64,000 nucleotides of DNA, from the NCBI RefSeq assembly GCF_024521635.1, contig NW_026250432.1, positions 1 through 64,000 on the forward strand, written 5' to 3'. This DNA is from Tricharina praecox. Lineage: Eukaryota. Under the pieces are notes generated by a model that saw only the letters and a list, made by a program, of their open reading frames with translations, had not been told where the DNA came from and searched no databases. The position numbers were made by a program, and so were the translations under genes. Below, piece after piece: positions 55,711-64,000 of this stretch. The first letter of the stretch is position 1, and each line of letters starts with the position of its first letter.

Positions 55711-57066
55711 ATGCGTTACTGCGCAAATCTCCTCTCGGTCGTTCTCGCTTTCCTGACGGCGGGATCGACAGTCTCCGCCCAGAACTACGGCAATGGTTGC
55801 AAGACCATTAACTCCATCTCCTACTGTGAGGCCGTCCAGGGCATCGCCTATAACGACATCAGCGGATCCGGAACGTACGATGATGTCTCCCGCATGGACG
55901 CTGCAACTTGCAAGTGTGATACGAAACCTAAGGCCTACAACGGAGCTATGGCACCTTTGGATGAGCAGGTATATAACCGTTCTCAATCGTCAACATCCTT
56001 TGATATCACTCGGTCGCTAATATCTTTCCCCGAATAGCTCTCCCTGCACTTTCGTGGCCCATTAGCTCTCAAGCAGTTTGCGGTGTACTACCCAAGCTCT
56101 TCAGCCCAGGGTAAGCGTAAAGCGAAGCGTGCCACCCACCTCCAGAAGCATGCTCGTAACGACAGGAAGCATGGACATGGCCACAGGAAGCCTCACAGGA
56201 AGGCCGCTTCCGGGAATATGGTCCGCACTGCGTACTACGACTCCAAGAAGGGAACTGCCGATGGACTCGTCTTCATGAACCACAAGGGCGGAGATGGCTC
56301 CGGTGTCTTCGACCAGTACGTATCCCTGCATGTGCACGCTTGTTGAAGGACTATCGACTGATTATACCCCACTACAGCTGTTGGGGAAATTCGCTGTCCT
56401 ACATGAGCCCGAACTGTAAGTCCGGCTCCGCTAAGCCCCAGATCCTTAGCGATATCACCATGCCTTCCAACACCGAGTTCGTGATTTTCTCCGACGAGAA
56501 GTGTGATGGCGACTGTGGTTACTCCCGTCCGGGCATTCCGGCTCATCGTAAGAAGCTTCCCGCTCCGTCACTTTGTTTGTGAGCGTCTCCATACTGACAC
56601 GTACATACTAGGTGGTTTCGATGGTAAGAACAAGATCTTCATGTTTGAGTTCCAGATGCCCAGGGATACCTCAGGTAGCTTCAATCAGAATATGCCTTCC
56701 ATCTGGGCTCTTAACGCCAAGATCCCCCGCACTGCTCAGTACGGTTCGTGCTCTTGCTGGGGCTCCGGCTGCGGCGAGTTCGACATGTTCGAGGTCCTGG
56801 AGGACGCCCACGACTACGTCAAGTCCCACTACCATGCCGCCCAGGGCGCTGTCTCCGGCAACAAGGGCGGAGGTGGTGCCCCCGACTACTTCAAGCGCCC
56901 CTACGACAAGACCATCAAGGCTGCCGCCATCTTCGACGAGCGGGGTACCGTCACCGTCAAGATCCTGGATGACGCGGTCCAGTTCGGCCGTGCCCTCGAT
57001 CCCAAGGTTCTCGGCGAGAACGCCAGGCCCAGCGGCAAGATATCCACCTACAATGTTCCTAAGTAA
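55711..57066 (+). CDS. Secreted TOS1/PGA52-like cell-wall protein (DUF2403 plus DUF2401), 3 introns
   Basis: Signal peptide, then GAMAPLDEQ|LSLHFRGPLALKQFAVY, WGNSLSY, KIFMFEFQMP, MPSIWALNAKIPRTAQYGSCSCWGSGCGEFDMFE, YFKRP. Confidence 0.88.
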
Positions 57067-60494: not shown

Positions 60495-63400
60495 ATGTCC
60501 AGTGAAAGTCCCCGTTCAAAGGAGGTTCAAGTGGAAGTCCGGATTGGAGCAATGCCGGGTTTGCAGATTCGAACGAAGGAAAAACTTCATGCTGCGTTCG
60601 AGAAGATCGACGAGAATCCCACGGTGAGTGTCATACCACACGACGTTCGTTCATTTAGATGTCGTGACGTCTGATGATACAACCCGCAGAACGATCCAGT
60701 GACTTTCTGGTGAGTGCAAAAAAAAACACCCGAGTAAACCATCGATGGCTTCTGATGGACTTTGCAGCTACGACGAAACAAATATCCGGCCCGATATCTT
60801 GATTGTACTATCGGCGGAGCTCTCCCGGAGGGTACTAAACAACTACAAAGGAGTTTTTCTTCCCGGAATCAAACTCCCGGACAAGGCGGAGACAAATTTT
60901 TTAGCAAAGCACAATGCCGCCGAATGCACCGTTTGTCCCGGGACGGATTTTTGTGGTCTGCAATCCCTTGCCACCTTGTACGCAACATGCTTGCTGCAGT
61001 ACTGACAATGACACAGACCATGTCGGTTTCTGGTCCCAAATACCGCGTCTGAAGGTATCAGGTTAGCACTCTCCGTTTACCTCCATATCAGCCCGACAAT
61101 ACTGACTCCTTGATTAGAGGTAACAGGCAACGCCGAACGAACTCGTCAGAACATTGAGGATAAACAAAGGATGGAGTTCATAGAAAAGGACGTCGCGTTT
61201 ACGTTTCACACTAGGTAAGTTCTGTTGGCCAGACCGCAAAGGCTATCGAATCAACACTCATAATCCGCACAGCGAAGGGTCCCGCACATACATTCGTACG
61301 CATGCATGGTTCTACATTCTGACTGATGTCCATAACCGTATCTTCGCATTCACAAACGTTTCCACCACTACCGTACCGGAAACTCCTACTGGATGGTTGA
61401 GAGCCTCTCTCGAGGAGATCTGCGACGGATGGGAGGACGTTATCGCAGAATGTGAACAACAGGTCGCCTTCGCAGTACGTATGATCCGTGCGCAAAACTA
61501 TTTCCACTCGGGCTAACCTTTGCAGAGCAAACAGATAGTCCCCGGAGAGCCCGAAGGGCCGGAAGAGAGGTCTGCAATTTCACGTGTAGGAGCGATGTTA
61601 GGCCACTCTGGTAGCCAATCACGTACACGGGAGAGTTTACCGGCACAGTTTTTGCGGTCCTTGACCAAAGTAGCCGATATTTCCGGTCGTCTGGACGCCG
61701 CACATAGGGAACAACAACGAGGAGTGGCCATGATGATCAAGGCTGGCGGTCACCGATGGCCAACACGTCGCGCGCAAAATAACAGAACTGCACCCATTCA
61801 TCATCCATCTCTTGGGCAATCCGGGGGGAGAACGACTGGATTGCAACCAACCATCGGCAATGACACTGAATTGGAAGAAGTTCTACAACGTTTCAAGATT
61901 GTGTTTGACGGCAGTGGGTTGGTTAAGAAGGTCGATGATCTTTTTCAAAGGGTATGTCTTCGGTCACTTTTAGTGGGTACCTGATTTTTGACTCAATCAG
62001 GCTACGAATATCATGTCCATCGACGAAGCGCATAAGGCTCGGGAGCAGGGGGCGAGCATGCGGAGGCTGTCCTGGGTAACAGTAGGTTCCGCCGGTGAAT
62101 GTATTTCCGCAATGACGCTGACGGTTTTCAGTTTATATTTTTACCCCTCCTCTTCGTGGCGGTAAGTGGCCTTGAATGCGAAATTTTACCCATCCGCTAA
62201 TAATCATGCTAGAGTTTATACGGTATGAATGTGGGTATTCCGATACACCCCCTCACCCCCTCCGAACAACATTGCTAACCTGTAGATTAGGTGGATGCTA
62301 CCGAAAACAACCCAACATGGACGACCTTCTTCTACATCGCCGTACCAGTTTTTACCGTCGTTATGTTGAGTGTGTTGATACTTAAGTTCCGCAAGGGGCT
62401 CCGGAGTTTCTTACCCAACCCAGCAATCCGCACGAAACGCAACCAGAATAACGGCGGCGACATAGAGAATCAGAAGGCCGAACTTCACAGCATGAGCATC
62501 CCCTTGATCTCAGCGATCGAGCAAGATATGGTCGCCGTCGTCGAGCAGTATCTTGTCGAGCGGAGTGACATCGATAGAGACATTCCCGAACGCGGGAATG
62601 CACTACAATGTGCGTTGATTGCGGGAAGTTTGGGTGTGACTACCCTTCTTCTGGAAAAGAAAGCGGATGTCAATGCAGCGCCAGGACCATACCGCGGCGG
62701 AAGAACCGCCCTCCAAGCAGCATCGGAAGGACGCCACCTTGAAGTGGTGGATCGACTCTTGGAGAAGGGGGCCGATGTCAACGCAGATCCAGCACGTCAT
62801 TCCGGAAGAACCGCCCTACAAGCAGCATCGGAAGGAGGCCACCTTGAAGTGGTGGATCGACTCTTGGAGAAGGGGGCTGATGTCAACGCAGATCCAGCAG
62901 GTCATTCCGGAAGAACCGCCCTACAAGCAGCATCGCAAGGAGGCCACCTTGAAGTGGTGGATCGACTCTTGGAGAAGGGGGCCACTGTCAACGCAGCGCC
63001 AGCAAGATTTTCCGGAAGAACCGCCCTACAAGCAGCATCGGAAGGAGGCCACCTTGGAGTGGTGGATCGACTCTTGGAGAAGGGGGCCGATGTCAACGCA
63101 GATCCAGCACATGGTTCCGGAAGAACCGCCCTACAAGCAGCATCGGAAGGAGGCCACCTTGGAGTGGTGGATCGACTCTTGGAGAAGGGGGCCGATGTCA
63201 ACGCAGATCCAGCATTTGATTCCGGAAGAACCGCCCTACAAGCAGCATCGGAAGCAGGCCACCTTGGAGTGGTGGATCGACTCTTGGAGAAGGGGGCCAC
63301 TGTCAACGCAGATCCAGCATTTGATTCCGGAAGAACCGCCCTACAAGCAGCATCGGAAGGAGGCCACCTTGGAGTGGTGGATCGACTCTTGGAGAAGGGG

Positions 63401-64000
63401 GCCACTGTCAACGCAGATCCAGCATTTGATTCCGGAAGAACCGCCCTACAAGCAGCATCGGAAGCAGGCCACCTTGAAGTGGTGGATCGACTCTTGGAGG
63501 AGGGGGCCACTGTCAACGCAGATCCAGCAAGTCGTTCCGGAAGAACCGCCCTACAAGCAGCATCGGAAGGAGGCCACCTTGAAGTGGTGGATCGACTCTT
63601 GGAGAAGGGGGCCGATGTCAACGCAGATCCAGCAGGTCATCCCGGAAGAACCGCCCTACAAGCAGCATCGGAAGGAGGCCACCTTGAAGTGGTGGATCGA
63701 CTCTTGGAGAAGGGGGCCGATGTCAACGCAGCGCCATCAGATTGGCACGGAAGAACTGCCCTACAAGCAGCATCGGAAGGAGGCCACCTTGAAGTGGTGG
63801 ATCGACTCTTGGAGAAGGGGGCCACTGTCAACGCAGATCCAGCAGGTGATTCCGGAAGAACCGCCCTACAAGCAGCATCGGAAGGAGGCCACCTTGGAGT
63901 GGTGGATCGACTCTTGGAGAAGGGGGCCGATGTCAACGCAGATCCAGCATATGATTACGGAAGAACCGCCCTACAAGCAGCATCGGAAGGAGGCCACCTT
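60495..64000 (+). CDS. CorA-like membrane protein with a C-terminal high-identity ankyrin array (3' end outside window)
   Basis: Frame-consistent exons: 60495-60623, 60690-60709, 60768-60955, 61017-61061, 61118-61214, 61273-61474, 61526-61951, 62001-62081, 62132-62161, 62213-62230, 62291->64000. They give ...SIDEAHKAREQGASMRRLSWVT|FIFLPLLFVA|SLYGMN|VDATENNPTWTTFFYIAVPVFTVVMLSVLILKF, then GRTALQAASEGGHLEVVDRLLEKGADVNA repeats. Confidence 0.85.
62699..64000 (+). repeat. 105-bp coding tandem repeat (35-aa ankyrin units), 12 full units plus a partial 13th
   Basis: GGAAGAAC(C/T)GCC starts at exactly 105-bp spacing: 62699, 62804, 62909, 63014, 63119, 63224, 63329, 63434, 63539, 63644, 63749, 63854, 63959. 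Confidence 0.98.

Follow-up and report, generated by a model that had tools for sequence, protein, structure and literature searches.

High-internal-conservation (HIC) repeats are enriched in NLRs, as the passages of PMC4986451 and PMC13449251 used here report. In Podospora NLRs, HIC ankyrin (ANK) arrays carry positively selected sites in the inner helices and in the hairpin/loop (PMC4986451, same passages). PMC13449251 also describes HIC ANK units of 33-36 aa and documents exchange between paralogs for WD and TPR repeats; in the passages used, its three ANK genes are well differentiated, and ANK exchange is expected, not observed.

On the channel side, a CRISPR type III CorA effector acts in bacterial immunity (PMC10600005), and the ANK-TM calcium channel Lr14a acts in wheat immunity (10.1101/2024.12.10.627212). 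In Morchella importuna, mimpvic32 is a polymorphic CorA gene and a candidate vegetative-incompatibility gene (PMC8940278). Table S3 of PMC12258605 contains four CorA-bearing Sordariales NLRs, with CorA unnamed in the main text (12 of its 17 supplementary files were searched). CorA is likewise unnamed in the effector-survey passages of PMC9815663, PMC12881547 and PMC4986451 used here, and the supplements of PMC9815663 and PMC4986451 may list it. Lineage-specific CorA expansions have been explained as magnesium uptake (passages of PMC10694956), and the parts of PMC10684091 and PMC10714772 used hold nothing decisive for the gene described below. Our searches of the open PMC/bioRxiv literature, with part of its supplements, brought up no paper in which a CorA-ankyrin fusion is presented as a receptor.

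The DNA analysed here (the window, 64,000 nucleotides in all) ends inside such a fusion, hereafter gene A. By its genes and their homologs, it belongs to a filamentous ascomycete. Removal of ten introns upstream of the ankyrin array gives an open frame of 1205 aa that starts at 60495 (Table 1). Runs X2 and X3 belong to two studies, either of which may be the source study; that they are RNA is a guess, and the evidence is taken from the GT..AG joints. In their spliced contigs, eight of the introns appear as listed joints of this kind. In X2 record 6, exactly 48 letters (30+18) lie between 62081 and 62291, which corresponds to both mini-exons, and the record then follows 62291-62727 letter for letter into the first ankyrin unit. 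X3 record 8 extends to 62490 of the last exon. The spliced mRNA encodes a CorA-family domain, made up of a predicted stalk helix, a TM1 that closes with GMN and a TM2, and after it 19 near-identical ankyrin units.

The public protein P0001 equals our gene model up to the GMN motif and then reads through the last intron to a stop, so the public annotation splits gene A. Contigs of four runs contain no other letters in the CorA part, which thus gives no sign of allele polymorphism.

Summed contig depth in X3 was about 100,000 on one ankyrin unit (62699-62815) versus 43 on unique gene A sequence; in X2 it was about 5,000 versus 111. As the X3 unit depth lies far above copy number, another array gene may be very highly expressed, contig depth being a poor measure of this.

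Table 1. Gene A, its tandem paralogs and related array genes (positions without a prefix count from the first letter of the window)
Feature	Position	Strand	Description
Gene A, exons 1-8	60495..62081	+	putative cytoplasmic part and stalk helix, CorA-like domain
Gene A, exons 1-4	60495-60623, 60690-60709, 60768-60955, 61017-61061	+	
Gene A, exons 5-8	61118-61214, 61273-61474, 61526-61951, 62001-62081	+	
Gene A, mini-exons	62132-62161, 62213-62230	+	end of membrane helix 1 and GMN signature
Gene A, last exon, start	62291..62698	+	membrane helix 2, linker, degenerate capping ankyrin repeats
Gene A, array	62699..64000	+	HIC 35-aa ankyrin units, hypervariable codons 33-35
Paralog B	about 66.6-71.1 kb		broken: stops 68562, 68604, frameshifts
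Paralog C	about 72.4-76.4 kb		broken: stops 73247, 75918, 76212; degenerate TM1 exon
Paralog D	80051-85053		open frame, 1535 aa, 28 units
Gene E	C17		fifth CorA-ANK gene, own homogenised array
Gene F	L036:5873-8735 (C83)		helical N-terminal region, weak C2H2 fingers, 8 HIC ankyrin units of the same type
Gene H	C26 (L039)	minus	NACHT NLR with 35-aa HIC ankyrin array, same loop variable
C39 locus	L040	minus	two tandem ankyrin-array genes, both with in-array stops

P0001 matches the Pfam CorA profile (PF01544) with 50.7 bits (cut-off 27, E 2e-13, profile positions 203-263), and its homolog P0004 covers profile positions 91-286. In gene A, as in CorA/Mrs2/Alr1 (2-TM-GxN) channels, a predicted stalk helix leads into a TM1 closed by GMN, and a short loop and TM2 come next. 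Hydropathy gives two membrane helices, with a peak of 2.2 for helix 2, and the alignment of gene A with solved CorA at TM1/GMN is weak (E 0.37). A 16-row alignment of the family has M and N of the motif invariant. The domain is broken up by introns, and so all 10 exons searched singly stay below the Pfam cut-off (best E for CorA 0.044). A profile search of solved structures gave only ankyrin proteins among the best 60 of 544.

The model of P0004 (mean pLDDT 68) predicts a long stalk helix that extends as far as GMN and is followed by TM2 and an ankyrin tail; residues 320-388 are modelled as one continuous helix with two long helices before it, and residues 86-199 have pLDDT below 50. The matches listed in fold searches with the full model were all ankyrin proteins, hence these searches are silent on the CorA fold. 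Four copies of P0004 residues 215-445 are predicted to assemble with an ipSAE of 0.58 (best of three controls 0.00), a value that likeness to solved CorA may explain. Contact agreement between runs was at least 92% and partner pLDDT at least 69; in the benchmark, 20 of 30 solved pairs attained the ipSAE mark, against 1 of 23 single chains (in eukaryotes 17/29 and 0/30). The predicted interface runs along the stalk, TM1 and GMN, which may reflect self-assembly of the CorA/Mrs2/Alr1 type (a homo-pentamer in CorA).

Gene A differs from those channels in a divergent N-terminal part, in its tandem birth-and-death cluster and in a C-terminal tail of about 760 aa, mostly ankyrin. The N-terminal part of all paralogs and several homologs holds a Cys-rich patch (60925-60955 in the window), which is repeated in E. 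This patch is possibly a metal site, model confidence there being low.

No NACHT/NB-ARC domain was found in gene A: P0001 matches only CorA in Pfam, the last exon within the window matches ankyrin families and no NTPase, and the spliced model leaves no room for an NTPase domain. The C-terminal superstructure-forming repeats of NLRs are present as ANK. With the central NTPase absent, we rejected gene A as a fungal NLR (STAND).

From 62699, the window holds 12 full 105-nt units and one partial unit (12.4 in total), and past its edge the array continues to C29:64669, 19 units overall. The 12 loops read DPARHS, DPAGHS, APARFS, DPAHGS, DPAFDS (three times), DPASRS, DPAGHP, APSDWH, DPAGDS and DPAYDY, exactly as the first-pass annotation had listed them; unit codon 33 encodes 7 different residues, codon 34 encodes 6 and codon 35 encodes 4. 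That annotation had reported only about three synonymous differences in the scaffold. The three silent variants it named are correct, and codons 3, 5 and 25 are the only purely synonymous variable codons of the 12 units. Amino-acid variants also occur, at codons 10, 11, 12, 15, 23, 26, 30 and 32. These replacements at eight scaffold codons indicate that the scaffold is homogenised, not kept by purifying selection among units.

Between pairs of units, identity averages 0.962 in the scaffold versus 0.599 in the three loop codons; at the nucleotide level, units average 0.92-0.93 and the loop 0.57-0.63. The array thus combines high internal identity with few hypervariable sites, as HIC repeats do. 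A single-sequence model predicts a regular ankyrin solenoid (mean pLDDT 80; TM 0.83 to the DARPin 6mol) with the variable residues in the inter-repeat loop. The first-pass annotation had put these residues at the tip of a beta-hairpin; the model gives coil there (pLDDT about 65-70), and the loop is two residues longer than in DARPins. The inter-repeat loop is the region randomised in DARPins.

An alternative open frame of 444 aa (window 62667-63998) overlaps the array. It is most likely a by-product of repeating a stop-free unit.

Loop diversification itself is a known kind of pattern, already published for HIC arrays of fungal NLRs. Podospora arrays described in passages of PMC4986451 display what the first-pass annotation had noticed, and Pa_3_8560 and Pa_2_8180 share with gene A near-identical repeats, hypervariable hairpin/loop sites and non-canonical units of 34-36 aa. 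Unit shuffling and paralog exchange are further common traits. Unlike these NLRs, gene A has no NACHT/NB-ARC, and its array follows a membrane domain; unlike the ANK genes in the passages of PMC13449251, it displays visible exchange, between A and D and with C.

Gene A is the first of four tandem paralogs on contig C29, flanked upstream by a Tos1-like cell-wall gene (window 55711-57066) and downstream by ORC3 (L005:8361-10000). A search of the cluster and its surroundings for a partner gene was negative, with a Pfam match in 0 of 10 ORFs. The reading frame is kept in all 19 units of A and all 28 of D. The arrays of B and C are divergent (identity 0.66-0.69), and there too the loops are the most variable part. 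Simple dinucleotide indices gave no RIP-like signature in B or C.

In the CorA part, identity between A and D is only 33%, and the N-terminal part diverges fast. Their arrays have 7 identical units in common (out of 18 unique units in A and 21 in D) and exact runs of up to 386 nt, and their 3' flanks (to 65178 in A) share 506 bp with 3 mismatches. The array end has thus been transferred recently between these old paralogs. D also holds a duplicated block of 8 units. A 62-nt tract spanning the loop is identical in A unit 15, D unit 24 and C unit 3; it does not belong to the A/D scaffold, which makes C its likely donor in what is a single event of inferred direction.

Repeats are thus exchanged within and between genes, as in HIC arrays. 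The array evolves in concert: its units are duplicated, shuffled within the gene, exchanged between A and D and patched by a short tract shared with C, and many different residues persist at the three loop codons. For the other A/D loop variants, the C18, C26 and C39 loci and E gave no exact match of at least 18 nt, and B and F matched at most 35 nt of scaffold; 29 of the 129 genome motif matches lie outside the list searched, so donors may be missed.

Near-identical units and a shared flank 20 kb apart are hard to assemble, and the array or the A/D sharing could in principle be an assembly artefact. We consider this highly improbable. Distinct loop variants are present in contigs from separate studies, as are the last unit and the junctions of both A (into unit 1) and D. 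In DNA run X1, depth reaches about 285 on one unit versus about 9 on unique sequence, and the frame is intact in every unit. A pure artefact was therefore rejected: contigs support the junctions and the loop variants, while the exact number and order of units rest on the assembly.

The variation was strongly concentrated in the loop. Among the 12 window units, the minimum number of changes at the three loop codons is 16 replacement versus 1 silent, and at the other 32 codons 9 non-synonymous versus 4 synonymous steps; scaffold omega is about 0.8-1.9. Codon site models had been proposed as a check of the first-pass annotation, and run among units they put loop dN/dS above 1. M2a was favoured over M1a (LRT 43.8, omega about 26) with a posterior of 1.0 for codons 33-35, and codons 26 and 30 were likewise flagged; these models were custom-made, with equal codon frequencies and FastTree trees. 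Loop omega stayed above 1 even with a separate synonymous rate for the loop (p 0.0007; p 0.004 on a loop-built tree).

Since the units recombine, the tree assumption of these tests fails and they are inflated. A conservative within-loop count gave p 0.08 for the window units and 0.04-0.2 in larger sets, some of which drop A15, D24 and D01 (terminal short units were dropped in all). We also ran 750 tree-free neutral simulations, in which units mutated, underwent in-register conversion and took up sequence from paralogs B and C. The observed loop concentration was reached in 4 of the 499 neutral runs with diversity in range. By codon models and by neutral simulations, the concentration exceeds chance.

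These numbers bear on a reading in which gene A encodes a transporter of divalent cations with a housekeeping role, the ankyrin tail being regulatory and its unconstrained loops refilled by neutral conversion from divergent paralogs. The Pfam CorA match with intact GMN fits such a role, as do the imported loop tract, the variable loops of B and C and the import-only simulations, 4 of 164 of which attained the observed value. The loop of paralog E has diverged equally at silent and replacement sites (loop omega 0.7 with its own silent rate). This suggests that old or imported loop patches have been kept, rather than fresh point mutation; silent loop sites are diverged in F too. The neutral runs as a whole speak against the transporter, and so do the almost invariant silent loop sites of gene A (pS 0.05 versus pN 0.50), the 8 CorA matches over cut-off at other loci of the 38-Mb assembly and a tandem birth and death that has left 2 of the 4 copies broken. 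We therefore regard it as quite unlikely.

The first-pass annotation had left a choice between positive selection and targeted diversification. Diversifying selection on the inter-repeat loop is supported, and a dedicated mutator is not. A mutator of the loop codons, be it similar to a diversity-generating retroelement or a local hypermutation hotspot, could account for variation at codons 33-35 of the window units that lies nearly all in the first two codon positions. Targets of such retroelements carry NNY codons and have a linked reverse transcriptase; the 10 ORFs in and beside the cluster give no Pfam match. Most adenines of the unit are invariant, including those just after the loop, third positions are free to vary in E, and the hotspot null is rejected for A by the separate-rate tests above. 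Furthermore, identical loops in A and D recur through unit copying, and at least one loop variant is a conversion tract shared with a neighbouring broken paralog. A mutator of either kind thus has very little probability; the retroelement type was rejected, as variation is not adenine-specific.

The same loop holds the top or joint-top variability in five other arrays, namely D, E, F (codons 33-35), H (32-35) and I (at C39; 34-35). This repeat type sits on various N-termini: CorA in A, D and E, NACHT in H and others in F and I. In gene F no NACHT was seen, and its helical N-terminal region, which has no Pfam match, presumably resembles a Goodbye-like domain. A separate CorA-like gene lies about 20 kb from the NLR H (C26:441 kb). 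At the C39 locus, the upstream array gene is HIC and is also variable at positions 7-11 of helix 1.

A profile of the GMN-TM2 exon retrieved 48 proteins, with an ankyrin match listed in 27 of the 33 scanned. A search with the CorA part of P0004 gave 45 proteins, including the query and P0001: 20 with CorA and ankyrin, 24 with CorA only and 1 with ankyrin only. The TM2-linker exon had no homolog among 318 candidates. Fusions occur in Pezizomycetes, Eurotiomycetes, a lichen fungus and Colletotrichum. In the 15 of 20 fusions checked, the domain order was CorA-ANK in 6 (including the query), ANK-CorA in 6 and NACHT-ANK-CorA in 3, the last all from Colletotrichum (P0074-P0076).

Many database members of the family start at the Met of GMN; gene prediction therefore frequently breaks these genes at the mini-exons, and the fusion is under-counted. 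Many CorA-ANK homologs have ordinary divergent repeats. Given these and the 24 of 45 proteins with CorA and no ANK, the fusion alone does not imply immunity. What is new is the molecule that bears the array, which the first-pass annotation had missed: a CorA-ankyrin fusion that lacks an NTPase, sits in a cluster with active exchange and comes from a widespread fungal family that is also found within NLRs.

Described systems share parts of this design. The NACHT-ANK-CorA proteins and the NB-ARC-TPR-CorA NLRs of PMC12258605 likewise unite CorA and repeats in one chain of immune-type architecture; unlike gene A, they have an NTPase, and CorA comes last. According to the passages of PMC10600005 used, CRISPR type III CorA is also a divergent CorA channel proposed to open on ligand binding; it differs in being bacterial, activated by SAM-AMP via its cytoplasmic domain and devoid of a repeat sensor. 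Lr14a and ACD6 (10.1101/2021.01.25.428077) similarly place ankyrin repeats and a membrane cation channel in one chain that is linked to immunity and cell death; as described in the parts used, they are plant ANK-TM proteins and not CorA, so this is an analogy only. mimpvic32 is, like gene A, a Pezizomycete CorA-like gene with GMN; it maps with vegetative incompatibility. Unlike gene A, it has no ankyrin tail (Supplementary Fig. 1 of PMC8940278), and in the passages used its allelic variation lies mostly before TM1.

On the observed architecture and diversification we build a proposal towards which we lean, if only slightly. Gene A would be a one-chain, NTPase-free receptor-channel, in which non-self sensing by the loops gates cation flux toward defence or death. 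In CorA, both termini are cytoplasmic. Given this topology, a CorA-like ring would sit in the membrane, and each subunit would carry one ankyrin solenoid that faces the cytoplasm. Stacked along the solenoid, the variable loops could form a recognition surface for a non-self protein, be it that of another strain or of a mycoparasite, or one of bacterial or viral origin. Ligand binding might open or deregulate the pore, and the resulting cation flux could lead to defence or cell death. Selection for new specificities would retain loop variants, and conversion would homogenise the remainder. Although not an NLR, gene A most likely acts in the manner of an NLR-type sensor that is coupled to an ion channel.

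The protein might also be a non-self or stress sensor in which CorA is a membrane anchor, an oligomerisation scaffold or a source of a mild ion signal, with another protein as effector. The evidence for selection and exchange concerns the sensor only, and the N-terminal part is both poorly modelled (P0004 86-199) and fast-diverging between A and D, all of which suits this reading. Against it, GMN is kept family-wide, as expected of a working selectivity filter, and complete NLRs also end in CorA. To us, such a sensor with a separate effector is rather unlikely. Beyond the receptor-channel proposed for gene A, we suggest tentatively, as something just short of an even chance, that CorA-family channels of filamentous ascomycetes make up an unrecognised class of immune or allorecognition effectors; in gene A, a hypervariable ankyrin sensor would then gate the pore directly, with no NLR ATPase involved, and the broken tandem paralogs would be a reservoir of loop cassettes for conversion into the active genes.

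The cluster displays ankyrin-repeat exchange among paralogs, including a broken one, which the passages of PMC13449251 expected and did not observe. For most fungal NLR-like genes the output is not known. If the receptor-channel reading is true, fungal immunity would gain an ion-channel effector, a CorA pore joined to an ankyrin sensor that diversifies, in parallel to the bacterial CRISPR CorA effector and the plant ANK-TM channels. Since gene A is compact and encodes a single chain, ligand gating is directly testable. The same reading would offer a testable mechanism for the Morchella incompatibility candidate, and it would give an alternative account of the CorA expansions that are ascribed to magnesium uptake in the passages of PMC10694956.
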